In this document: positions 22,890-36,047 of the stretch, in pieces
How positions within the stretch are numbered: the stretch's first letter is position 1
Layout: the number at the start of each line of letters is the position of its first letter
UHGV virus genome: UHGV-0174779
Reading direction: 5' to 3' (one strand)
Length of the DNA: 64,000 bases
DNA from: a virus
Position numbers and translations under genes: made by a program
The notes under the pieces: model-generated
Told to the model about the DNA's origin: nothing
Database searches by the model: none
Seen by the model: the letters and a program-made list of their open reading frames with translations, nothing else

Positions 22890-23040
22890 CGTAATTATTC
22901 GGTTCGTAAACGGACAGAAAAAGGTAGCTAAATAAGCCCTCTTCTCTCCTCCTTTTAGTACTATGACGCCTCTTTTTAGGCGGCCCAATTTGCGTAGGGA
23001 ATTCCCTCTACGCAGCCATAATTTTTAAGGAATTTCCCCT

Positions 23041-23456: not shown

Positions 23457-23482
23457 GACTCTTTTCGGAGAGTCCTTTTTTA
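23457..23482 (+). terminator. Terminator-like hairpin
   Basis: GACTCT-tttcgg-AGAGTC followed by CTTTTTT. Confidence 0.4.
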
Positions 23483-24029: not shown

Positions 24030-25229
24030 ATGTTTCCAGTAACATTAGAAGATACTGAAGGTAATGTTTTAACGGTTTATCCTCCTTGCTATGGATTCCT
24101 TCAGCTCCGCAACTATAACGGTGGTGCTGATGAAGGTGATGATGGCAAATACGATGAATATTTTGAACCTAACACCTATGAGGCAACTCGTGGGTGGAAT
24201 ATGCACGTTAAGGTTTGGAGCGAAGCATCTAATATTCGTAGTGCAGATGGGCAAGACTGCCTGTTAAGTGACGAGATGGATATGTGCGATATTAAACATA
24301 TCTGGAACTCTGGAACCCACTTAGATATGTTAGGTTTTCTGAGTTATCGTGACAAAAAGCCTGTAACCAAAGGGTTGGGTTGGGGTAATATTGATCAGGA
24401 AGGTGAGCTTAAAAATAACATTGAACGTTGGAATGACAAAAACCCTGAGTATCAAACCACACCTCGTGCTGTACTGGAAGCTATGGAAGCATTTGTGGAC
24501 AAAGACCGTCCCTCCTGTTTACGCTGGCACGAAAAAGGTTTTATGGGTGTAGCAACTGAGAATGTCCATGCTGACCGTTGTCTGTTCTATTTGATGTTAG
24601 ACCGAACCTTCTATTGTGAAGATGAAGAGAGTCAGGTTGAAACCTTCCTTCATAAATGGTTGGTTGAAGGCTGGACAATCCTTCAGGCCTATGTTTACTC
24701 ACGAATGGTTAGCACTTACACTAACCTCTTAGGAGAAACAAAAACAACTCTGGTTGGTAATGATTGGGATGCTTGTATCTTCCCAGCATCACTGTTTACA
24801 GTTGGTATGGCTGATAAGTATACTGAAGCATTTAAAGTGCCTTGGCGTCAGCAGTCGTACAATCATGGTTGTGGTCACTTCCGTGATGAAGATTTTAAAT
24901 GGATTAGTTATGAAAATAACGAAACATCAGATTTACGAGTTAATAACTCAATGTTCTTGCCGGTGATGCACCCCGATTTAGTAAAGAGTGGATCAGAAAC
25001 ACTTGAATGTGACAACCTTCTGGTTAACTTTGTTCGTCGGGTATCTAAAGGTGAAAGAACAGCTGACAAATTACTCTACGGTAATCGTATCGAGACTAAG
25101 GATATGTTCAACATCTATAACATTATTCAGCGATTTAGTAGTGGAACTCTGGACCAAAGTTCGGAGTATTCAGTGGTTCCATCCTCTGAATGGGATGGTA
25201 TTATGAGCGGATTATTTTTAGGAAAATAA
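24030..25229 (+). CDS. Hypothetical protein (member of ligase/amidotransferase block)
   Basis: 399 aa, no motif recognised by eye; tightly packed with downstream enzymes. Confidence 0.55.
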   Translation: MFPVTLEDTEGNVLTVYPPCYGFLQLRNYNGGADEGDDGKYDEYFEPNTYEATRGWNMHVKVWSEASNIRSADGQDCLLSDEMDMCDIKHIWNSGTHLDMLGFLSYRDKKPVTKGLGWGNIDQEGELKNNIERWNDKNPEYQTTPRAVLEAMEAFVDKDRPSCLRWHEKGFMGVATENVHADRCLFYLMLDRTFYCEDEESQVETFLHKWLVEGWTILQAYVYSRMVSTYTNLLGETKTTLVGNDWDACIFPASLFTVGMADKYTEAFKVPWRQQSYNHGCGHFRDEDFKWISYENNETSDLRVNNSMFLPVMHPDLVKSGSETLECDNLLVNFVRRVSKGERTADKLLYGNRIETKDMFNIYNIIQRFSSGTLDQSSEYSVVPSSEWDGIMSGLFLGK

Positions 25230-25239
25230 AAGGTTAGTT

Positions 25240-26211
25240 ATGTCAATCTCCACAACGATCGTACCTCTGAATCTTCAACAAGATTTAGGGGAACAGAAGT
25301 TCTTAGGTCGTGGGTGCTTCGGTATTCACAACTACATGCAAGGCCAAGTCATAAATGACATTAATGGCGACTCTGTAATGGAAGAAGGGATTCATAAACG
25401 CTTCAACCGTGATATCAACTTGCAATTGGAGATGTTGAATTACTGGACTCACTCTTTTCATGGTCTCGCTGCATCTGACATTGAAAAGAACTTGGTTGAA
25501 ACAGCAGACATTATGAACTCTATGTCTTGCTATCGTGATGTATTTACGATCACTTCAGCGAATAGTGTTGCTGTCAACCTCCGTGAGCATCCAGCAGATC
25601 AAATCTTCACAGGACTTATGCTCTTCCGTAGTATTCTGGAAGGGCAGTATCGTGGAATGGATTTCCTATCAGAAGGAATTGAAGACAGGGAAGAGTGGCT
25701 GAAGCGTAAACGCATCGGAATTGCTCTAGTGTTAGCTGGGTTAGGTCGAGACTTCTTCGGTGGATGGTCTCAACGAGGAACCTCCAATGGGAGTGGAGAG
25801 AACACATCCATTGTTATTAACAACAATATGTCAGCAGCAGCATTCCTTCCTTTGGTTGTAGACTCTGATGAATACACGAAACAAGTGTGGGTTCAAAACC
25901 CCTTCGGTGTTGGTGACAACAAGGACGGTTATGTTCGCAACCATAACCAAGATGCCTTACGAAGATTTGCTCGTGCTAAAGATCAAGACCCGGACGAGTA
26001 TGAAACAATGTCAGAGTGGTTAAGACTCTGGTCCAGCTGTCATGGTCACAAACGTGAAACAATAGACAATAAGTTGGAAAACATTACAGTACAAAACTTT
26101 ACAGCCCGATTGATTCAGCGTACTGGTCCAACTTCTGGCCTTACGACTGAAGAAGTTGGTAACACAATCTCATCTCTCTTTTCTGAACTAGTGGAGTATT
26201 ACAATGACTAA
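25240..26211 (+). CDS. Hypothetical protein (member of ligase/amidotransferase block)
   Basis: 323 aa, 10-nt gap from upstream gene, overlaps downstream start. Confidence 0.55.
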   Translation: MSISTTIVPLNLQQDLGEQKFLGRGCFGIHNYMQGQVINDINGDSVMEEGIHKRFNRDINLQLEMLNYWTHSFHGLAASDIEKNLVETADIMNSMSCYRDVFTITSANSVAVNLREHPADQIFTGLMLFRSILEGQYRGMDFLSEGIEDREEWLKRKRIGIALVLAGLGRDFFGGWSQRGTSNGSGENTSIVINNNMSAAAFLPLVVDSDEYTKQVWVQNPFGVGDNKDGYVRNHNQDALRRFARAKDQDPDEYETMSEWLRLWSSCHGHKRETIDNKLENITVQNFTARLIQRTGPTSGLTTEEVGNTISSLFSELVEYYND

Positions 26212-27010
26212 GCGCAAATTCTTAATAGGCAGCGACCCTGAGCTCTTCGTTCGTACTAGCAACGGAATCATCACCTCTGTAGCCGGTCTTCTAGGCTGCT
26301 CTAAGGACGATAAGATCGCTCTGGCTAAGGATGTTCGTCTTCAAGAGGACAACGTATTGGCTGAGTTTGATATTGACCCACAGAGCGGTTTTGAAGCGTT
26401 TAATGATAACATGCAACGTGGTATTGATCTCACCAATAGAGTCCTGAACAAACTGGACATGGAAACAGCTCCGGGTGTTAGCTCTCACATCTTCACTGAA
26501 GAGGAGATGAAGACTTTCAATGAATCAGCGTTCATCTTCGGATGTACTCCTGATTTCAACGCTTTCACTGGTCAGAAGAATCCATCCCCGACTTCTCAGA
26601 ACAAGGGGCTTCGTACTGCCGGTGGTCACGTACATCTTGGCGTAGTTGGTTCTTTGGATATCACTCTGCAAACTCAGATGATGCTGGGTGTGCTGTGTGA
26701 CTACTTCCTATCACTCCCAGCAGTTATCATGGATAAAGATACTCGCCGTAAAGAACTTTATGGCAAAGCATCTGCAATCCGTTATAAGGACTACGGTATT
26801 GAATACCGTTCACTGTCCAACTTCTGGATTAACGATCGTGAAAATCGTAAGTTTGTTTACGATCAGGTTGACAAGGTTGTTCAGCAGTGTGATATGTCCA
26901 CTCTGATGGCATTGCACTCTCGTCTTCCGATTGAGAAGCTTCACGAAATTATTAACGGTAATAACGTTAAAGAAGCGGACCAGCAGATCAAACTCCTTCA
27001 GGTAGCATAA
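26204..27010 (+). CDS. Possible carboxylate-amine ligase (amidoligase-like, weak)
   Basis: 268 aa; N-terminal GSDPELFV and central GGHVHLG loosely resemble the G-x-E-x-E and H-x-H elements of the neighbouring amidoligase. Confidence 0.4.
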   Translation: MTKRKFLIGSDPELFVRTSNGIITSVAGLLGCSKDDKIALAKDVRLQEDNVLAEFDIDPQSGFEAFNDNMQRGIDLTNRVLNKLDMETAPGVSSHIFTEEEMKTFNESAFIFGCTPDFNAFTGQKNPSPTSQNKGLRTAGGHVHLGVVGSLDITLQTQMMLGVLCDYFLSLPAVIMDKDTRRKELYGKASAIRYKDYGIEYRSLSNFWINDRENRKFVYDQVDKVVQQCDMSTLMALHSRLPIEKLHEIINGNNVKEADQQIKLLQVA

Positions 27011-27019
27011 GAGGTTATC

Positions 27020-27637
27020 GTGAGCTTAGTAGCTGATTTTTCTCATTACTATAGTGGCACATGGATTGCTAAACGAGCAGGCAACATCAACCTTCCCTGT
27101 TTTGTGATTGGTGTTGAGCAGAGAGGTAACTTCCGCAGCGACGACTTCTCACATGAAGCAGAACAAGCTCTGTACTTTGTTGTAGAGCAATGGTACAAGA
27201 ATGAGAACGGGATTCTCCGAAACACTACGATGAATATTCCAGTGTTTGACCCAACCTTGATTCTTGAATCACCTGATGTTGGCTATCTGTTCCATAATGG
27301 TAACACTGTAAGCTGGACTCATATCAACCCTGTTCGTCAGAGAGCGAAGGGTTTGGTGGGTAACAAGATTCGAAATGCTCCGGGGGTTGGTCGTTCTATC
27401 TCTGGGGAAATGGTTTACAGTCTATTCAATCCTGAATTTGATGGATTGGTTACTCGTTACATTTACATCAACCCTACAGATGGTAAAGTGCATTATAAAG
27501 GTGCACGGGTAGGTCAGGTAGATCTGGAAGCACCTCGTGACTCTTACGGTCAGCAACCGATGCGACTTCTGGAACATTTTCATCACATCTCTGAAAACCT
27601 TAGCAATTATAATATTACGTTGGTGGATTCGTTATGA
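27020..27637 (+). CDS. Hypothetical protein (member of ligase/amidotransferase block)
   Basis: 205 aa, GTG start, stop overlaps next start. Confidence 0.5.
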   Translation: MSLVADFSHYYSGTWIAKRAGNINLPCFVIGVEQRGNFRSDDFSHEAEQALYFVVEQWYKNENGILRNTTMNIPVFDPTLILESPDVGYLFHNGNTVSWTHINPVRQRAKGLVGNKIRNAPGVGRSISGEMVYSLFNPEFDGLVTRYIYINPTDGKVHYKGARVGQVDLEAPRDSYGQQPMRLLEHFHHISENLSNYNITLVDSL

Positions 27638-28737
27638 CAACTGTAGCGCAAACTTTTGGATATCGAGAAGGTCGTTTAACTGAGGCGCATAGTTCAATTG
27701 CACTTCAGTGCGGTGTCGGTATTGAACTTGAACTCGAAGGTTCTGAACATATCGAAGCAGATATGTGGGATTGCACAGAGGATGGTTCCCTGCGTAACGG
27801 TTGTGAAATGGTATGTTCACGACCTTACAACGGACAGGAGTTGTTAGACGCTATCAACAACCTGAGTGAAGCAGTAGCTGAATCGCACGCCGAGGGGACT
27901 TGGCGTTGCTCTACTCACGTTCATATGGATATGAGGGATGCTGATAGTAATATCCTCAAGAAGACCATTCTAGCTTGGACCTTCTATGAAAAGATGTTGT
28001 TCAAGTGTTCAGGCTACCATCGTTACCGTAGCAACTTCTGCCCTGCTTTCGCAGTGGTACAAGCACAGGTAATGAATGCCTCTGACGCATTTAACTACGA
28101 CGATGAAGAGTTCTTCAACCGTCTGGTTCGTTCATGGGATAAATATACATCTCTGAACCTTCTGCCACTTGCCCAATATGGTTCGATCGAGTTCCGTATC
28201 AGTGAGCCTAAGTGGAAACGTGGTCAACTTCTCAATCTGGTTAACCGCTTCTTAATGTTGAAGAAGCTGGCTTTAGATAACGCAGAGATGAGCAATGATC
28301 AGTTTATCGAGCATTTAAATACTGTACGATTTGCCCCAATGCTTCCTTATCTTCCACTAGATTACAGTCTGGATGAATTGGATTTGCATTCAGGGTATTG
28401 TATGGCCCGTGATGTTTTGTACTGCCGTTCTCATGAAGTAGAGCAGTCTGGTCGTATTCGTTTACGTCGAACCAACCCAAGTGGAGAAGTTCTTGTTGAC
28501 TTACGTCTTATCTCAGACTTCTATGGATACCTTGGATATGTCCGAGGGAATGCTAACAACTTGTACCAAGAGATTTTGGTCATGCTTAATACAACAGATC
28601 TATCTACTGTACGATCTGCACCAGAGCAATGTATCCGTGAGATCTTTGACTTACTTCGTGAGTCAGGCCATATTGATAATAATATCACAGGGTACATTCC
28701 AGATCATCTGGAGTATCAGTTAGAGCAAGCGCTGTAA
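27634..28737 (+). CDS. Amidoligase (glutamine-synthetase-like carboxylate-amine ligase family)
   Basis: 367 aa; GVGIELELEG, EDGSL, CSTHVHMD, FRISEPKWKRG motifs typical of phage-type amidoligases. Confidence 0.6.
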   Translation: MTTVAQTFGYREGRLTEAHSSIALQCGVGIELELEGSEHIEADMWDCTEDGSLRNGCEMVCSRPYNGQELLDAINNLSEAVAESHAEGTWRCSTHVHMDMRDADSNILKKTILAWTFYEKMLFKCSGYHRYRSNFCPAFAVVQAQVMNASDAFNYDDEEFFNRLVRSWDKYTSLNLLPLAQYGSIEFRISEPKWKRGQLLNLVNRFLMLKKLALDNAEMSNDQFIEHLNTVRFAPMLPYLPLDYSLDELDLHSGYCMARDVLYCRSHEVEQSGRIRLRRTNPSGEVLVDLRLISDFYGYLGYVRGNANNLYQEILVMLNTTDLSTVRSAPEQCIREIFDLLRESGHIDNNITGYIPDHLEYQLEQAL

Positions 28738-28816
28738 TCAATGGGTGCCTCTGATAAAGGGGCACAATTTAAAGGTTAATTAGATGAAAGGGTTTACCCT
28801 TCAGGTGGATTAGAAA

Positions 28817-30847
28817 ATTTGCGGCATCGTATTAGCTGGCGGTAATCTGTCAAGCACCGATTTAGACGTATTCAACCAACTCTTTTATGCTGGGGTATTC
28901 CGAGGACAACATTCCTCTGGTATCTTTGGTCAGCGTAAAAGTACTAAGGAAGTCTTCACTTATAAGGAAGCTCTTCCCTCTTTCGCATTCATCCTACAAG
29001 ATGAGTATAAGAAGCACACCACTGGTGAAACATCTTATACTGTAGCACCTTCATGGATTGTTGGTCACAGTCGTCATGCAACGAAAGGTGCAGTTAACGC
29101 CAAGAACGCCCATCCTTTCCAACACGGTAACATCACTCTGGTTCATAACGGAACCTTGATGGACCAAGATCTGTTACCTGACAGTAAAAACTTCGAGGTA
29201 GACAGTGAGAACATCTGCTACTCTATTAACACTATTGGTGCAGCAGAGACTATTCAAAAGCTGGATGGTGCTTTCACCTTAATCTGGCATGATGCTTCTG
29301 ATAACCGTCTTCATATTATTCGTAACGAAGAGCGTCCTTTCCATCTCGCACGTTGTAATAGAGATTGGTTTGGTGCTTCTGAAGAAGATATGCTGATGTG
29401 GATTCTGAAGCGTTCTAAGTCTCACAAAAACCGAATTGATGAGCACTTTGAATGTAAAGTTGGTACAGAATATATCTTTGATATGTCAAACAACAGCATG
29501 ACTCTGGTTGAAGAGGTCGCCCATGAGCTTCCGGTTTTTACGGTAGTCAATCGTTGGGCCAGTTACTACTCGAACAACTACAGCCAAAGCAATTATCAAA
29601 GCTCCTCAAAAAGCAGTACAAGCAATCCTTACGACACGAAGCCGGGAGTGACAGCGGCAGACGTTCGTCGAAGAAACGCAGTGGTAAGTCAAAACAAAAT
29701 CGCAAGCGATCGAAACATTGATATTCGCCGCGACATGACTGTGGAAATCACACCACATGAATTTGTTCCCTATGCAACTGCTGGTGCTGTTCCTTCTCGT
29801 GGTAAGATGATTGGTTATATCTACGATGAGAAATCTCAAGAGTACATTGAAGGTGATGTTCATAACGTAGACATTAAGGCTTATCAGGATGCCCTGAAAG
29901 ACCCTAAAATTGTTTACCGTGGGACAGTATCCTGCATCTCCGAAGTCGATGCTATGGTTCGTTTAGTAATCACAGCAGGTCGTTTTGTTGACCCATCTCT
30001 GGAGAAAAAGGAGCCTGAGTCAACTACTGCTGACTTCGATGATGATATCCCTTTTGACATGAATGATAGTTTCGTCAACAAGAATGGCGTTACTATCACT
30101 CGTAAATTCTGGGAAGCACACTCTCATGGTGATTGTGGTGGTTGTGACAAGCACATTGATTGGAAGGATGCACCTAAAGCAGTCTTCGCATATCAGTGCT
30201 ACTGGCATCCCGAGTGTCTGGAAAGGTTGACTAAACCTAAAGAGGAAGAAGAGGAGGAGACTCCTATCGGTGTTTGTGAAATCTGTGGTGAGGTTAAAAC
30301 AGAGAATGAGTTCGATGAAGAACTTAGCCGCCTCCGTGGTGAAGATATCTGTAAAGACTGTGCTGTAGAAGTAAAGAAGAAAGTGTCTAATGCTACGATC
30401 AAAGATGGTTATGTCTGGATTAAAGCAACAGATACAACAAACACCCGTCGTCCTGAAATTGCTGTACGTGTAACTGAGGAAATGATTGGTCGTATGACCG
30501 TATTACCCTCCTCAGCGAAACAAACAGGTATCACTCTGGAAGATGTTGTTGATGCTTATGTTGAGAAACGTGGCAACAGTATTTTTGCAATCTCGACTAA
30601 GCCAAAAAAGGAGGAACCTGCTGAGAAAGCAGGTGTGTTTCCTGAATCACGAACAGCTCTCCGCAAAACTGTTGTCAGCTTCGACGGAAATCGAAGCACT
30701 GACTTCACCAAAGCCATGTGGTCAACCCTCGGATACTGCTCAGAGTGTTTTAAGCAGATTCCGTGGCGCGATGCTGAAAGTTGTACGCTTGGTTCTATGA
30801 ATCAAGTTTATTGTAATTCTCCTAAATGTTCATTGAATAGAGGTTAA
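28817..30847 (+). CDS. Class-II glutamine amidotransferase (Ntn-hydrolase) fused to Cys-cluster C-terminal domain; probable AUU start
   Basis: ORF track starts at 29156, but the same frame upstream encodes (I)CGIVLAGG...FRGQHSSGIFG...NAHPF...LVHNGTL, the N-terminal Cys and HPF/HNG signature of class-II GATases. No ATG/GTG/TTG precedes the Cys; AGGTGGA lies 8 nt before ATT 28817. C-terminal part has three Cys4-like clusters. Confidence 0.55.
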   Translation: MCGIVLAGGNLSSTDLDVFNQLFYAGVFRGQHSSGIFGQRKSTKEVFTYKEALPSFAFILQDEYKKHTTGETSYTVAPSWIVGHSRHATKGAVNAKNAHPFQHGNITLVHNGTLMDQDLLPDSKNFEVDSENICYSINTIGAAETIQKLDGAFTLIWHDASDNRLHIIRNEERPFHLARCNRDWFGASEEDMLMWILKRSKSHKNRIDEHFECKVGTEYIFDMSNNSMTLVEEVAHELPVFTVVNRWASYYSNNYSQSNYQSSSKSSTSNPYDTKPGVTAADVRRRNAVVSQNKIASDRNIDIRRDMTVEITPHEFVPYATAGAVPSRGKMIGYIYDEKSQEYIEGDVHNVDIKAYQDALKDPKIVYRGTVSCISEVDAMVRLVITAGRFVDPSLEKKEPESTTADFDDDIPFDMNDSFVNKNGVTITRKFWEAHSHGDCGGCDKHIDWKDAPKAVFAYQCYWHPECLERLTKPKEEEEEETPIGVCEICGEVKTENEFDEELSRLRGEDICKDCAVEVKKKVSNATIKDGYVWIKATDTTNTRRPEIAVRVTEEMIGRMTVLPSSAKQTGITLEDVVDAYVEKRGNSIFAISTKPKKEEPAEKAGVFPESRTALRKTVVSFDGNRSTDFTKAMWSTLGYCSECFKQIPWRDAESCTLGSMNQVYCNSPKCSLNRG

Positions 30848-30852
30848 ATCAG

Positions 30853-31086
30853 ATGGAAATTCGTAAGATGATGTTGGATAATGTTGTAACTACTCGACGT
30901 ATCCCGATGACGAGCACAGGATGTGACAACCTTCGTGCAATCCAGAAGTGGATGCAAGCTGGTATTGGTCAAGTACTTGAGACACAGGTTGAGGTTCCGT
31001 TCCCAACGGTGATCAATAACGTACTTGCTGATTATGTAAAAATCAAAGGCATTAAGGTAGAACCTCATGTCAAATCTGGTTCCTAA
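30853..31086 (+). CDS. Hypothetical protein
   Basis: 77 aa ORF inside the enzyme block. Confidence 0.4.
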   Translation: MEIRKMMLDNVVTTRRIPMTSTGCDNLRAIQKWMQAGIGQVLETQVEVPFPTVINNVLADYVKIKGIKVEPHVKSGS

Positions 31087-31291
31087 GAAACCGAAGATTA
31101 CTCTCCTACAGTATTACATAGGAGTTCATATCGAATTAGTAACGGAGCAGCGAAAGCTGTATCCGTTCGCTTTCGGTCTGATTGATGCACCATCCGATGA
31201 AGTAGAGAACGATGCGTTCAATGACTACTTCGAAATTGAAGCTCAGATTCAAAAAACTCGTAACGAAATTCTTAAACTTAAAGGTATCTAA
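31067..31291 (+). CDS. Hypothetical protein
   Basis: 74 aa ORF overlapping upstream gene end. Confidence 0.4.
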   Translation: MSNLVPKKPKITLLQYYIGVHIELVTEQRKLYPFAFGLIDAPSDEVENDAFNDYFEIEAQIQKTRNEILKLKGI

Positions 31292-31293
31292 CA

Positions 31294-32490
31294 ATGACTA
31301 CTCGTATCCGTGTTCTCCCTTATGGCCCTTCTGATTCAGTTCGTGAACTTACTTCTGCTATTAATGCTAAGATTCAGGAACTTCGACTGAATGCTAACGT
31401 AATGTCTCTGGTATCAGAAAACTCTCGTTATCGTTCTCGAGCCGGTGATATTGTTGTAAACTATGGCAACCGTCGTTATGATGCTTCTTTCTTTGGTGGT
31501 GCAACCGTACTGAACCCTGTTGAAGCCCTGAACCGAGCAGCTAATAAAGTTGCAGCATTTAACGCATTACGGTTGGCTGGAGTTAAGACTGTTGAATATA
31601 CCGTTGATCGTGAAGTAGCTCAGAGCTGGAACCAAAACGAAATCGTTTATGAGCGTGCAACCTTAACTGGACATTCTGGTGAAGGCATCACCGTACGTCT
31701 TCCGGGAGAAGGTACTGCAAGTGCTCCTCTGTATACGAAAGGTATTCAAGGTCCGCGTCGTGAATGGCGTGTTCATGTGTTCGAAGGTGTTATCACTTAC
31801 GTTCAGAAGAAGATTCGTCGTAATGGATATCGTGAACTGGAAAGCTATCGTGAAAATATTCGCAACCATCACACTGGCTGGGTTTACTCTAACTCTTTCA
31901 CTGAAGCTCCTCCTGATCAAGTTCTGATTCAAGCCCACAAAGCTGTGTCTGCTCTGGGTTTAAACTTCGGCGCTGTTGACCTGATTAGTAAAGGCTCTAA
32001 CGCTTGGGTTCTGGAAGTAAACACTGCTCCGGGTCTGACTGGTACAACTCTGGAAACTTACACTCACAACATTGTTGAGTTTGTTAAGAGCTTCTCTGGT
32101 GTTGAGCCTGACTACCGCGTTGCTTACGAACTGCCTGTTGAAGAGTCGGAAGTTGAGTTTGCTGACTCAGCGGATGATGAGAACTTTGCATTGACAGCTG
32201 AGCCAGTTGCTGAAGAGTCATCTGAACCTGTTCCTGAAACAATGCAAGTGGAAGAACAAGGGTTAGAGATCAACCCAATCACCCGTCGTACCCTGCGTCG
32301 TGGTTATTATATCGCGAACATCAAGCATCCTGAAAACGGCTCAACTGTAGCAAGTAATGTAATTGTTTTCTTCTGCGGTCGTAACTTCTACCGCTCTGGT
32401 TGGAACGCACCAATTAGTGATCGTCAGCTTGGTCGTGTGTTGCAGATTAATAGCCTTACCCTGAATGATGGCACTGTTGTAAACTACTAA
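31294..32490 (+). CDS. ATP-grasp family ligase (RimK-like)
   Basis: 398 aa; EWRVHVFEG, GWVYSNS, LGLNFGAVDLISKGSNAWVLEVNTAPGL are characteristic ATP-grasp C-terminal motifs. Confidence 0.75.
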   Translation: MTTRIRVLPYGPSDSVRELTSAINAKIQELRLNANVMSLVSENSRYRSRAGDIVVNYGNRRYDASFFGGATVLNPVEALNRAANKVAAFNALRLAGVKTVEYTVDREVAQSWNQNEIVYERATLTGHSGEGITVRLPGEGTASAPLYTKGIQGPRREWRVHVFEGVITYVQKKIRRNGYRELESYRENIRNHHTGWVYSNSFTEAPPDQVLIQAHKAVSALGLNFGAVDLISKGSNAWVLEVNTAPGLTGTTLETYTHNIVEFVKSFSGVEPDYRVAYELPVEESEVEFADSADDENFALTAEPVAEESSEPVPETMQVEEQGLEINPITRRTLRRGYYIANIKHPENGSTVASNVIVFFCGRNFYRSGWNAPISDRQLGRVLQINSLTLNDGTVVNY

Positions 32491-32496
32491 GGATAT

Positions 32497-32745
32497 ATGG
32501 ATATGTTTTCATTGGAAGATCTAGTACAAAATGGAATGATGGAACAAAAAGAGCCTCTGATTGTAGGCTCTCGTAAAGAGTTGCGTAAGTTGTGTGAGGA
32601 ATGGGGTATTACTAATCAGCGAATGATTGGTAATCAATTCTCTGCAATTGTAACTTTCCTGAAACGTGGTGATAAGTATTCTATGGAATGTGTAGAACGT
32701 ATCATCGCTGAAGCACAACAAGACAAAGGAGTGACCTATCTGTGA
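32497..32745 (+). CDS. Hypothetical protein
   Basis: 82 aa ORF. Confidence 0.4.
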   Translation: MDMFSLEDLVQNGMMEQKEPLIVGSRKELRKLCEEWGITNQRMIGNQFSAIVTFLKRGDKYSMECVERIIAEAQQDKGVTYL

Positions 32746-32927
32746 ATAAGTATAAAGTTCTGTTTAAAGATACCAATGCCGCTGGTGAAATGCGAGCTAT
32801 GGACCTAGATGCTGATATGTTTAACTTCTCTGATGGCAAAGTGACCTTCTTTCAGGGAAGTGAAGCTGTTGCAATGTTTGAGAGTGCAGCAATCTGTGGT
32901 GTAATCAAAATCTTTATTACAGAGTAA
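32742..32927 (+). CDS. Hypothetical protein
   Basis: 61 aa ORF, GTG start overlapping upstream stop. Confidence 0.35.
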   Translation: MNKYKVLFKDTNAAGEMRAMDLDADMFNFSDGKVTFFQGSEAVAMFESAAICGVIKIFITE

Positions 32928-32996
32928 TCTGCTTTAGCCTCTTCGAAAGAGGGGGCTAGTTCGGATAAACTAAACAAACCAACAAAGGTATAGATA

Positions 32997-33416
32997 ATGT
33001 CAGAAGTAATTTACGTAGCAACTTATGGAAGTTTGAGAAGCGGTCAAGCTAACTATTTAATTAATGACCGAGCTGGTGCTAAATCTATTGGTGAAGGTTG
33101 GACTGAAGATAACTTCGATCTGTTCCGTTACGGTGGTTCCTACTTCCCGAGCATCTCTCTCGCACACAGCAATAACAATAAGCCTGTTCGTGTAGAAGTG
33201 TTTGCTACTGACAAAGCAGGTCTGGAAGGTCCATATGACCGTCTGGAAGGCTACAACAAACATAGCCCTGAAGATAGCTTCTATCAGCGTACCCAGATTG
33301 CTGTTAAGATGGACTCAGGTGAAACTGTTATCGCTTGGATTTATCATATCGACGAAGAACAAGATGTTCTGGTTGAGTCAGGAGACTGGTCAGAGTATCT
33401 AAAAAACGAGGGTTAA
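32997..33416 (+). CDS. Gamma-glutamyl cyclotransferase-like (AIG2/GGCT fold) protein
   Basis: 139 aa; N-terminal YVATYGSLRSGQANY and downstream acidic residues match the GGCT-like signature. Confidence 0.55.
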   Translation: MSEVIYVATYGSLRSGQANYLINDRAGAKSIGEGWTEDNFDLFRYGGSYFPSISLAHSNNNKPVRVEVFATDKAGLEGPYDRLEGYNKHSPEDSFYQRTQIAVKMDSGETVIAWIYHIDEEQDVLVESGDWSEYLKNEG

Positions 33417-33882: not shown

Positions 33883-35428
33883 ATGTCAAAGATCATTTTG
33901 GGAGACACAGGCTGTAAGGAATGTATCTCTCATGGTCGTGATAAAACCCACAACCACATGATTCTCTTCCGTAACGAAGAGACCGGTGAGGAGTGGGGAA
34001 GTTGTAACCGTTGTGGGAATTACGAAGTGTTCGAAAAGGGCACTACACCTACTCCAAACGAGAAGAAAGAGTTATCCCCTGAAGAGTTGAGAGAAGTCTT
34101 AGATGATTGCTTAGAGCTTCCTCAGGGTGAACTTACTCGACGTTTAATCCCTAAAGCCGTATCAGAGCGTTTTGAGTGTCGCATTGGCCTCAGCCAAACT
34201 GATGGTCAGACACCAGACAGTTACTTCTTTCCTCGTGAACGTGATGGAAACATCGTTGGTTACGAGGTTAAACTGCTAGATAGTAAGAAGTTTTATTACG
34301 TTGGCAGTGTGAAAGAAGCAGATTTATTTGGTATGGCACAGGCTCAGCGTGGTGATGTGTACAACAAGAAGCTATTCATTTTTGAAGACCCGCTATCTTG
34401 TATGTCTGGTTTCCATGTCCTTACAGCTTTTACAAATGCAACAAACATTAAGCCAGCATGTGTTTCTTTACCGTTCGGTGCAGGTTCAATCTCTTCTGTG
34501 TTGTCTCGTAATCGAGACTTCGTAAATGGTTTTGAGGAGGTTGTGCTCTGCATGGACAACGATGATGCAGGTGAGATAGCTTTAACAAAAGGTCGTTCTT
34601 TATTCCCTCATGTCAAGTTTGCTCGTATTCCTAAAGGAACTTTCCCATACAACGGTGTGGAGAAAGAGATTAAGGATGCGAATGACATGCTTCTGTCTGG
34701 TCGTGGTCAAGAGTTATTCAACATTCTCAAGTATTCAGCAAAGCGGGAATCTCCTGCTGGTGCTGTAACAATCTTTGATTGTCTTGATGATGCTCTGAAG
34801 AAAGCAGAATGGGGTATCCCCTATCCGTGGAAGACTCTGAATGAAATGACCTTCGGTATTCGATGGGGAGAGGTGGTAGCAATTGGTGGTGGAGTAGGGA
34901 GTGGTAAAACACTCATTGCTCACGAGCTGGTTGCTCATCTGTGCTTAGAGCATGGTTTTAATGGAGGTGGCTTCTTCTTGGAAGAGAAGGTAGGCATGTC
35001 TGTTAAGAACATTGCTGGTAAGTCAGCATCTATTCCTTTCCACCGACCAGATGTTGAATATGATGAGGAGGATTTGCGTAATGAAGCACTTCGTTATGCA
35101 GACAAATTCTTCTTGTATGACAACTTCGGACAGAACGAATGGGAAGACATTAAACAGTGTATCCGTTTCTGGGTAGTTGAAAACCAGTGTAAGTTTATCA
35201 TCCTTGATAACATTACCGCTCTGGTATCTCATTTAACACCTTCAGAGATTAACACTGAAATCAGTAAGATTGCTTCCGAGCTTGCTGGTATGTGTAAAGA
35301 ATTAGACTTTACCGCTTTCGTTCTATCTCACCTCAATGCTCCGGCAGGTGGTGCTCCTCACGAAGAAGGTGGACAGGTACGTGAAGTGCAGTTCACTGGT
35401 TCTCGTTCCCTTATGCGTAAACAAACCT
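33883..35428 (+). CDS. DNA primase-helicase (T7 gp4-like), 5' exon or N-terminal part
   Basis: N-terminal zinc ribbon CKEC...CNRC, helicase Walker A GGGVGSGKT, Walker B FIILDNITAL; reading frame breaks after ...EVQFTGSRSLMRKQT within helicase motif H4. Confidence 0.8.
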
Positions 35429-36047
35429 GCGCATGTAAAACCTATTGAACTCAGGGAAAGCTAAGTCGAAAGATATGCCAATCCTGAGCTAAGCTAGACA
35501 GTCTTCCAAGAGCAAGGAGGCTTTATGGAAGAGAAACAAATAGAAGGTGCATCTAATTATTGGGTGCGGCCTGATGGTACGATTTATAATAGTAAAACAG
35601 GCAATGTTATCTTAGGGGCCAGACATGGCAACGGATATTTAACTGTTTACTTAAGAATGGATACGGGACAAAGAAAGAAATTCTACATGCACCGACTAGT
35701 AGCTATTGCCTTTGTTCCTAACCCTCACAATTATCCATTTATTGATCACTTGGACCATACAAGAGATAATAACGTGGCAACTAATTTGGAGTGGGTAACC
35801 AACGCTGAGAATGTTCAGAGAGGTTACAATTTCTTTAATTATAAACGGAAGACTGTTTAGAAAGTGCAGAGACTAGGGTGGTCATAAGACCGAAGTACAG
35901 CCAAGTGGTGTCATTAACATTGACTTAAATGGAAGCAGTAGGCACACTTTTGTGTGGTGAGATAGTCCGATCTTGCAGGAAACTGTAAGCAGCATGTAGT
36001 GGTGCGGGGTATGAGTAGCGATCATATCTGAACTTTTGTGGTGTCAG
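35429..36047 (+). mobile_element. Probable group I intron (or HNH-mediated gene split) interrupting the primase-helicase gene
   Basis: About 620-nt insert between helicase segments; contains a free-standing HNH ORF with its own AAGGAGG RBS. Exon boundaries inferred by alignment logic, uncertain by a few nt. Confidence 0.55.
35525..35860 (+). CDS. HNH homing endonuclease (intron-encoded)
   Basis: 111 aa; HRLVAIAFVPNPHNYPFIDHLDHTRDNNVATNLEWVTNAEN HNH-type motif. Confidence 0.7.
   Translation: MEEKQIEGASNYWVRPDGTIYNSKTGNVILGARHGNGYLTVYLRMDTGQRKKFYMHRLVAIAFVPNPHNYPFIDHLDHTRDNNVATNLEWVTNAENVQRGYNFFNYKRKTV

Follow-up and report, generated by a model that had tools for sequence, protein, structure and literature searches.

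A virus-confined phiEco32-type amidoligase module in phage genome UHGV-0174779, with gamma-glutamyl as its putative transient handle

Introduction

Phages of the phiEco32 type carry a block of amide-forming enzymes that ranks among the most widespread enzyme-rich phage gene blocks of unsolved chemistry, its function having been open since 2009. What do these enzymes make, and is their target a small molecule, a protein or a DNA base? We addressed this question with the copy of the block that lies at positions 24030-33416 (9.4 kb) of the UHGV virus genome UHGV-0174779, of which a stretch of 64,000 nucleotides (the window) was analysed. This copy, whose genes are named here gpA to gpL, is of Kuravirus type (phiEco32-like, Gordonclarkvirinae), with 92.6-93.3% full-length identity to about 70 Escherichia and Shigella podophages such as NJ01 (about 93% identical), SGF2 and SU10. 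The block is annotated in about 100 GenBank Kuravirus records, where the relatives of its genes are labelled glutamine amidotransferase, ATP-grasp enzyme, amidoligase, COOH.NH2 ligase and gamma-glutamyl cyclotransferase, with hypothetical proteins between them. It is thus the already described phiEco32-type amidoligase module and not a new discovery.

A preliminary description of this DNA, made from its letters, had stated that such ligase clusters were known computationally and not biochemically, and the literature agrees with it. The Pfam family PF14395 is named for phiEco32 (Phage phiEco32-like COOH.NH2 ligase-type 2), and, in the accounts of PMC10580990 and PMC11318856, Iyer et al. 2009 (Mol Biosyst 5:1636) proposed that phiEco32 uses its amidoligase and amidotransferase to alter the cell wall and so block superinfection. 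For LUZ24-like Pseudomonas phages, PMC3890496 lists the same genes in a table and offers no interpretation, and our literature searches found no experimental product or phenotype for the module. The preliminary description had also predicted that the ligases, a glutamine amide donor and a gamma-glutamyl-cleaving enzyme together build and trim a gamma-glutamyl or peptide-like adduct, a prediction which the comparative evidence given below supports. The reading that we favour, at a probability of about 55%, is that the module is a virus-restricted, multi-enzyme cytoplasmic pathway whose amide-linked product is built up over several ATP-dependent steps, with gamma-glutamyl as a transient handle.

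The module keeps its gene order across distant phages and is confined to viruses

About 90 loci were compared in all, and the block is syntenic in a set of 86 of them, which puts it well beyond what chance would produce. Within this set jackhmmer found gpC, the anchor of the module, in 86 loci, gpE in 85, gpF in 81, gpI in 79, gpD in 71, gpL in 49 and gpG in 27. The order C-D-E-F-(G)-I-(L) was invariant in Kuravirus, LUZ24-like, Lahexavirus, Zobellviridae, Vibrio and marine metagenomic phages. The records annotate the genes separately, for example as GlmS-like aminotransferase or RimK, as would suit unrelated auxiliary metabolic genes that merely co-locate. This explanation is extremely improbable, because the order C-D-E-F-I was retained even where gpC identity drops to about 30%, in phages with almost no other sequence in common.

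Homologues of gpC were found by tblastn in 307 annotated phage records (from Escherichia, Pseudomonas, Vibrio, Aeromonas, Proteus, Salmonella, Cronobacter and other hosts), and the gpC profile detected at least 532 IMG/VR viral contigs. In 100,044 bacterial and archaeal genomes, one per species, the same profile gave 18 loci, all of them on contigs of metagenome-assembled genomes (MAGs) or on tiny scaffolds, from which we conclude that the module is essentially confined to viruses. The phages that bear it are strictly lytic, and the module adjoins replication genes, a primase/helicase gene being located at most 10 kb downstream in 48 of the 86 loci. On one metagenomic phage contig (L108, 2176-4677), genes for a NupC-type nucleoside transporter and a Na/Ca exchanger precede the module at a distance of a few genes, and one for a NUDIX protein follows it.

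Gamma-glutamyl removal is a conserved step

The last gene of the block, gpL (32997-33416, + strand, 139 aa), had been described as gamma-glutamyl cyclotransferase-like. It matched Pfam GGACT above the cut-off (E 7.9e-17), which makes it a GGACT/AIG2-type gamma-glutamyl(amine) cyclotransferase, and it has an intact YGSL motif (residues 10-13) and a catalytic-type Glu84. Conservation across 50 sequences of the family covers Y10, G11, L13, D81, L83, E84 and G85, with Y10-G-S-L13 and E84 kept in at least 90% of them. Clades that lack GGACT have a gene just 5' of gpC whose product, about 210 aa long, is of the Peptidase_C26/class I amidotransferase type (E 9.7e-20) and carries the classical PuuD-type nucleophile elbow GICRGAQ. 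Among 57 complete loci, defined by full flanks and core enzymes, 33 had GGACT alone, 19 had C26 alone, one had both and four had neither, so that a gamma-glutamyl-cleaving enzyme of either kind was present in 53/57. GGACT, BtrG and PuuD enzymes cleave gamma-glutamyl amides that have a free alpha-amine. The substitution of GGACT and Peptidase_C26 for each other between clades argues that gamma-glutamyl removal is an integral step of the pathway.

This specificity bears on the role that Iyer et al. 2009 predicted for phiEco32, as reported by PMC10580990 and PMC11318856, namely that the module alters a peptidoglycan precursor or another envelope peptide and thereby blocks superinfection by competing phages. 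It is textbook knowledge that ATP-grasp or amide ligases and amidotransferases act on cytoplasmic peptidoglycan precursors (Ddl, MurT/GatD), and the gpI family profile has weak matches to Ddl. The peptidoglycan bond, however, is a gamma-D-glutamyl bond whose alpha-amine is acylated, which by textbook enzymology is not a substrate of the GGACT or PuuD type. Moreover, no signal-peptide-like N-terminus and no clearly hydrophobic 19-residue segment was found in any enzyme of the block (maxima of 1.57 in gpC and 1.81 in gpK, a protein of 61 aa), which places the chemistry in the cytoplasm. Removers specific for gamma-L-glutamyl and soluble cytoplasmic enzymes fit the cell-wall proposal poorly, and so do the position of the module beside replication genes in strictly lytic phages and its near absence from the cellular assemblies of 100,044 species. 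We therefore regard an envelope target as distinctly unlikely.

The block encodes three amide-forming ligases

Three proteins of the block are ligases, each of which had been named as such or as a candidate. gpC (26204-27010, + strand, 268 aa), noted before as a possible second ligase, is a carboxylate-amine ligase related to glutamine synthetase (GS) and GCS2 enzymes; it matched PF14395 (COOH-NH2_lig) with E 2.7e-8 and 33.8 bits, the cut-off being 25, and is 98% identical to its orthologue in phiEco32 itself (locus L009). Its invariant residues are D11, E13, Q47, D49, E54, H142, H144, R193, E200 and R202. gpE (27634-28737, + strand, 367 aa), the predicted amidoligase, is a second GS/GCS2-like carboxylate-amine ligase and matched PF12224 (Amidoligase_2) with E 3.7e-8 and 34 bits against a cut-off of 22, its invariant residues being G29, E31, E33, E35, S52-L-R54, E58, H95, H97, E119, R130, E186 and R188. 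No link between gpC and gpE was detected by hhalign, and searches of the Protein Data Bank (PDB) with sequence profiles of gpC, gpE, gpD, gpB and gpG gave nothing significant.

The assignment of gpI (31294-32490, + strand, 398 aa; phrog_2599, phrog_20552) as an ATP-grasp ligase held at the profile level. As a single sequence gpI scored under the Pfam cut-off for ATP-grasp, and its homologue in locus L017 scored above that for RimK; a family profile of 33 sequences matched RimK/alpha-L-glutamate ligase structures with E 7.7e-10 to 9.6e-8. Invariant residues include those expected for ATP and Mg binding (K85, R121, E157, R159, D229, E241, N243). The ATP-grasp region spans about residues 1-290 and is followed by a C-terminal extension of about 80 aa that also occurs as a stand-alone phage protein family. 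The label 'S6 glutaminyl transferase' which databases give to relatives of gpI is annotation transfer only.

The similarity of gpI to RimK, a modifier of ribosomal protein S6, is one of several points in favour of protein modification. According to this alternative, glutamate or other amino acids would be attached by the ligases to a side chain or a terminus of some protein of the host or the phage, in the manner of RimK-, TTLL- or PafA-type tagging, with gpD as an adaptor holding the target and GGACT/C26 and gpF as erasers or editors. It draws further support from gpD, a non-catalytic tandem SH3/Tudor-like barrel, from the variable C-terminal extensions of the ligases and gpF, and from the fast evolution of gpA, as is often seen in host-interacting proteins; phage ATP-grasp ligases targeting host proteins have also been proposed by Aravind and colleagues (PMC4431377). 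Against it stands the need of GGACT and PuuD-type enzymes for a gamma-glutamyl group with a free alpha-amine, a reaction known on small substrates. Nine conserved genes would be a large set for a phage protein-modifying system, and no small protein of the tag type, ending in a conserved Glu or Gln, was present, the C-termini of gpG/DUF7195 being unconserved. Taking both sides together, protein modification is a possible but doubtful explanation.

gpF has an intact glutamine site and starts at an ATT codon

The protein described as a class II glutamine amidotransferase fused to three Cys4-like modules, gpF (28817-30847, + strand, 676 aa), bore out both parts of that description: it matched GATase_6 above the cut-off (E 2.2e-14), and the three modules were seen in the C-terminal half of its translation. 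Its N-terminal nucleophile (Ntn) domain is followed by a low-complexity linker, a small beta-rich domain and the three Cys4 zinc-ribbon-like modules. Short homologues (372-391 aa) have after the Ntn domain just the linker and a beta domain of about 80 aa, and longer ones add the zinc ribbons. No fused synthase (acceptor) domain was found in gpF, and no Pfam domain in its residues 222-676.

Alignment of 27 homologues gave as invariant residues C1, G2, R28, H83-N-R85, N96-A-H-P-F, H109-N-G111, D128 and R168-N169. The set that forms the glutamine site, as aligned to PurF and GlmS (Cys1, R85, the oxyanion hole N110-G111 and D128), was intact in 27/27; Arg, Asn-Gly and Asp residues of this kind recognise the alpha-carboxylate and alpha-amine of glutamine. 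The gpF profile is nearest to the glutaminase domains of PurF and GlmS (E about 1e-16), with a far weaker match to the YafJ-like structure 1te5 (E 0.004). Since gpF co-occurs with either gamma-glutamyl-cleaving enzyme, GGACT or Peptidase_C26, it is not simply the gamma-glutamyl remover, and we infer from the same co-occurrence that it donates ammonia in trans to a ligase.

The start of gpF had been placed at 28817, and this position is well founded: the codon there is ATT, a rare non-canonical start, and stands immediately 5' of that for the nucleophile Cys. A strong Shine-Dalgarno sequence, AGGTGGA, precedes it by 7 nt, and an in-frame stop codon, TAG, by 6 nt. The program-made list of open reading frames (ORFs) had given TTG 29156 as the sole start of this gene. 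The ATT start (28811-28822 region) was kept in all Gordonclarkvirinae loci examined and arose independently in one metagenomic phage (loci with this start being L001, L008-L011, L019 and L030), while 64 other gpF homologues begin with ATG-TGY-GGN (Met-Cys-Gly). A start at ATT suggests a deliberately low or IF3-sensitive translation of gpF. Many GenBank records, that of NJ01 among them, annotate a gpF of 563 aa without the catalytic Cys; Bas90 is annotated with the full 2031 nt. The 79-nt gap between gpE and gpF (28738-28816), the sole sizeable gap in the core, contains an imperfect inverted repeat, GTGCCTCT-GATAA-AGGGGCAC, which the terminator scan did not flag and which could influence translation from the ATT start.

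gpD, gpG and an unnamed family of enzyme-like proteins

Three sizeable ORFs, at 24030, 25240 and 27020, had been described as lacking recognisable motifs. This was right in so far as none of them has a Pfam match, and was incomplete in that the first two, gpA and gpB, proved to be paralogues of an enzyme-like family and the third, gpD, a non-catalytic double beta-barrel protein. gpD (27020-27637, + strand, 205 aa) is confidently modelled as two small beta-barrels of the SH3/Tudor/KOW-like kind, without catalytic residues. Its gene is always located between those of the two GS-like ligases, gpC and gpE, and hhalign found no link of gpD to the C-terminal parts of gpF or gpI.

gpA (24030-25229, + strand, 399 aa; phrog_13063, function label unknown) and gpB (25240-26211, + strand, 323 aa) first appeared lineage-specific in our comparisons. 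In gpA the N-terminus is a beta-hairpin followed by Cys20-Tyr-Gly, and the NJ01 orthologue keeps C20, D180, R190, Q272 and G280-x-x-R283 (NJ01 numbering); near-invariant in gpB are C26-F-G, D120, R130, Q219 and G230-Y231-x-R233. gpA is the fastest-evolving gene of the block: its amino acid identity to NJ01 is 84%, where the core enzymes reach 94-100%, and drops to about 42% in comparison with Suseptimavirus-type phages, a pattern typical of proteins under diversifying pressure. The positional analogues of gpA and gpB in other GGACT-type lineages all have a beta-hairpin of about 20 residues and then Cys-[Phe/Tyr/Trp]-[Gly/Ala], a motif that occurred in 18/38 upstream families and in 8/73 elsewhere (Fisher p = 3.6e-5).

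Early hhalign comparisons of small alignments did not link these upstream families, and the link came only with a deeper profile: a HMMER scan of 1.84 billion representative proteins with the gpB profile gave 103 members, whose profile connects gpB to families of 7-11-like, Lahexavirus, Vp_R1, PJNS034 and marine phages and to homologues of gpA. A profile built solely from gpB-family representatives detected gpA homologues at E 2.5e-12, with the gpA of the window at 20.6 bits, and a second iteration reached gp45 of VPp1 and, weakly, TC6_056. The c35 and c41 proteins of LUZ24-like phages are tied to this family, which we call CFG, by the Cys-Phe/Trp-Gly motif alone. In 150 CFG sequences Cys was conserved in 95%, Asp in 92%, Arg in 98%, Glu in 82% and Gln in 84%, together with Gly-Tyr-x-Arg; this set looks like an active site, by which gpB would be enzyme-like. 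Both of the distant members examined (2/2) lie directly upstream of the amidoligase module. The structure model of gpB was too weak for a fold assignment.

Several roles considered for the CFG cysteine were set aside: a propeptide with an Ntn nucleophile, a hedgehog/Hint 'GCF' site, a class I amidotransferase elbow and a 'PPC' motif of the C5-methyltransferase or thymidylate synthase (TS) type. All were unsupported, there being no conserved His, no C26 homology and neither a methyltransferase nor a TS fold. In Aeromonas phage LAh_6 (L004; 5586-9990 and 17009-20147) four tandem CFG paralogues lie upstream of the module, and genes for NAD salvage, encoding a ribose-phosphate pyrophosphokinase and a nicotinamide phosphoribosyltransferase, follow just downstream of it.

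The small protein gpG (30853-31086, + strand, 77 aa) belongs to Pfam DUF7195, which matched 17/17 members (best E 3.8e-37). Its gene sits between those of the amidotransferase and the ATP-grasp ligase in GGACT-type modules and is also found in L106 and L108, and its C-terminus varies among the aligned members. A ribbon-helix-helix fold for gpG, drawn from a pattern reading and one weak RelB match (E 0.003, in 1/17 members), is not claimed. The remaining small ORFs are confined to Kuravirus-like phages: gpH (31067-31291, + strand, 74 aa; phrog_13464) and gpJ (32497-32745, + strand, 82 aa) occur in 9/86 loci each and gpK (32742-32927, + strand, 61 aa) in 6/86, with no Pfam match for gpJ or gpK.

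Taken over the whole block, the profile searches proposed in the preliminary description upheld the ATP-grasp, amidoligase, glutamine amidotransferase and gamma-glutamyl cyclotransferase folds.

A proposed pathway and the nature of its product

The pathway that we propose would begin with gpC or gpE, joining the gamma-carboxyl of glutamate to an amine of the substrate through an acyl-phosphate, as in the reactions of PuuA and of GCS2-type enzymes. Further amide bonds would come from the second GS-like ligase and the RimK-like gpI, and gpF would most likely supply one of the ligases with ammonia, so that a carboxylate becomes a carboxamide. Finally, gpL would release the gamma-glutamyl group as 5-oxoproline and so free the amine, a removal that the PuuD-like Peptidase_C26 of other clades would achieve by hydrolysis. 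gpD may serve as a scaffold or substrate-binding subunit, and gpA and gpB are probably lineage-variable enzymes that prepare or tailor the acceptor. Protein families, residues, synteny, virus restriction and the GGACT-C26 exchange are observations; the order of the steps, the parts given to gpF, gpD, gpA and gpB and the kind of product are what we infer from them.

With regard to the target, the preliminary description had left a DNA base, a protein and a small molecule side by side. Of these a DNA base is now the least likely. The product is most likely a small peptide-like or gamma-glutamyl-amine metabolite in the infected cytoplasm, rather than a modified DNA base. Sequence does not separate a free metabolite from protein modification: the logic of a gamma-glutamyl shuttle favours a small substrate, and the gpD barrels, the gpF zinc ribbons and the variable extensions favour a macromolecular one.

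Four points weigh against the pathway as proposed. Firstly, the GGACT/C26 alternation is structured by clade and can be explained by as few as three state changes on the gpC tree, and thus rests on few evolutionary events. Secondly, gpF might act as an EgtC-like gamma-glutamyl-X amidohydrolase, for which its glutamine-site residues would serve equally well. Thirdly, non-catalytic extensions of variable form occur on every enzyme, and both gpD and the gpF zinc ribbons resemble macromolecule-binding modules, so that a protein or nucleic-acid target would fit at least as well as a free metabolite. Lastly, no carrier protein resembling an acyl carrier protein (ACP) or LysW was found with the module.

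Genomic setting and the question of DNA modification

All the ORFs named in the preliminary description were present on the + strand at the coordinates it had given, co-directional and tightly packed as it had said. Neighbouring genes are 1-11 nt apart or overlap by 4-20 nt, with wider gaps of 79 nt before gpF and 69 nt before gpL. Just 5' of the block are two terminator-like hairpins with T-runs (22990-23015 and 23457-23474), at which a preceding early transcription unit may end. The terminator scan found no convincing hairpin within the block, and this arrangement is consistent with a single transcription unit. In the relative SU10, mass spectrometry found the products of the ATP-grasp, amidotransferase and YtfP/GGACT genes, together with a hypothetical protein of 23.3 kDa (PMC4281155); the last of these would be gpD, which it matches in size.

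Downstream of the block the primase/helicase gene starts at 33883. It is interrupted by a 620-bp insertion (35419-36038) that is absent from NJ01 and contains an ORF (35525-35860) for an HNH_3 homing endonuclease. The insertion gave a full-length match to the Rfam model for group I introns, at 32 bits (E 2.9e-6) where the gathering score is 50. The helicase reading frame is taken up again at about 36027, with its C-terminal 88 residues. A thymidylate synthase gene is located elsewhere in the genome, outside the block.

The adjoining primase/helicase gene, found in 48/86 loci, is among the arguments for DNA hypermodification, in which an amino-acid-derived adduct on phage DNA or on a nucleotide precursor would shield it from restriction. 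Such an adduct would explain an observation of the BASEL study, in which Gordonclarkvirinae were unusually resistant to restriction-modification and had no known modification pathway (PMC11990801). A precedent exists in CmoX/CmoY, where ATP-dependent amide ligases, some with a class II amidotransferase domain, act on a carboxyl handle on DNA (PMC12783734). The gpF zinc ribbons and the Tudor/KOW-like barrels of gpD would suit a nucleic-acid target as well, and the conserved CFG Cys could in principle, as a speculation, attack a pyrimidine.

These arguments are offset by three findings. No TS-like hydroxymethylase, 5-hmdU kinase, aGPT-Pplase, CmoA/CmoX or DpdA was found in the block or its conserved neighbours. 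Virion DNA of the module-bearing phage tf, which is not Kuravirus DNA, was cut with RsaI, HpaI, EcoRV, SmaI and HaeIII and was cloned (PMC3517423). The window also shows strong palindrome avoidance, a signature of DNA exposed to type II enzymes: the median observed/expected ratio of 6-mer palindromes was 0.47, eight GC-rich palindromes were absent, and CCWGG and GATC occurred 7 and 132 times against 73 and 238 expected. Sites for EcoRV (31), EcoKI (9) and EcoP1 (94) were not depleted, however, which leaves the published restriction-modification resistance of these phages unexplained. Blanket DNA hypermodification is unlikely, and as an account of the module as a whole we consider DNA hypermodification very improbable.

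Significance

As a finding in this window the module is ordinary, being already annotated in about 100 close relatives. Its interest lies in its spread, since the full block is seen in coliphages, in LUZ24-like Pseudomonas phages that are therapy candidates, in Vibrio and Aeromonas phages and in abundant marine phages. Identification of the product would reveal a new phage metabolite, macromolecular modification or counter-defence strategy, and would also give functions to two Pfam ligase families, DUF7195, the gpD barrel family and the CFG family. The sharper handles that the present analysis provides are the gamma-glutamyl removal step, the gpD scaffold, the candidate CFG enzymes and the trans-acting amidotransferase. 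A bolder version, in which a virus-exclusive pathway of 8-9 genes with Cys-dependent CFG enzymes makes a new gamma-glutamyl-shuttled metabolite or macromolecular adduct that in Gordonclarkvirinae is the factor behind the broad resistance to restriction-modification and other defences, is speculative and unlikely.

Comparison with known systems

The closest known system is the phiEco32-type neighbourhood of Iyer, Abhiman, Burroughs and Aravind (2009). To the extent that this source is represented in later citations and in the phiEco32 locus (L009), it is the same module, with the type-2 COOH-NH2 ligase, Amidoligase_2, class II amidotransferase, ATP-grasp and AIG2/GGACT genes all syntenic, and with no difference in kind. 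The present analysis adds the gpD barrel protein, the CFG family and the DUF7195 component, none of which is annotated as far as checked, and the GGACT/C26 alternation; some of this may already be contained in Iyer et al. 2009.

The CmoA/CmoX/CmoY system, which makes 5-carboxymethylcytosine-glycine in DNA, differs in that CmoY is an AMP-forming asparagine-synthetase homologue and not a GS-like or ATP-grasp ligase (PMC12783734). CmoA and CmoX are, in addition, absent here, and the DNA of the module-bearing phage tf is restrictable (PMC3517423).

Among solved structures RimK is the closest relative of gpI, with which it has in common the ATP-grasp core and the conserved Mg-ATP residues. RimK is the alpha-L-glutamate ligase of ribosomal protein S6, which it polyglutamylates. 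gpI differs from it in that the similarity is at profile level only, in a different C-terminal extension and in having no RimA or RimB partners. Nor was a Pup-, LysW- or ACP-like tag or carrier found, or a small protein with a conserved C-terminal Glu/Gln or EDWGE, gpG/DUF7195 being the only conserved small protein of the module.

The ergothioneine enzymes EgtA and EgtC offer a likeness of another kind, a GS/GCS-like ligase paired with a free-standing protein of the class II amidotransferase fold that recognises a glutamyl moiety. However, gpF is much nearer to PurF and GlmS than to the YafJ-like 1te5, the phage module has a separate gamma-glutamyl-cleaving enzyme besides gpF, and no homologues of EgtB, EgtD or EgtE were found with it.

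The logic of the module is best matched by butirosin biosynthesis and putrescine utilisation, in which an ATP-dependent ligase forms a gamma-glutamyl amide that a GGCT-fold or C26 enzyme removes later. Butirosin uses the ATP-grasp ligase BtrJ and the GGCT-fold BtrG, and putrescine the GS-like PuuA and the Peptidase_C26 enzyme PuuD; the phage module has both kinds of ligase and, depending on the clade, either kind of remover. Pfam searches of the block and its conserved neighbours gave no ACP carrier, oxidase or other tailoring domain of these two pathways, and the phage module differs from them by its three ligases and its amidotransferase. The likeness is accordingly one of logic, and not homology of the whole pathway.

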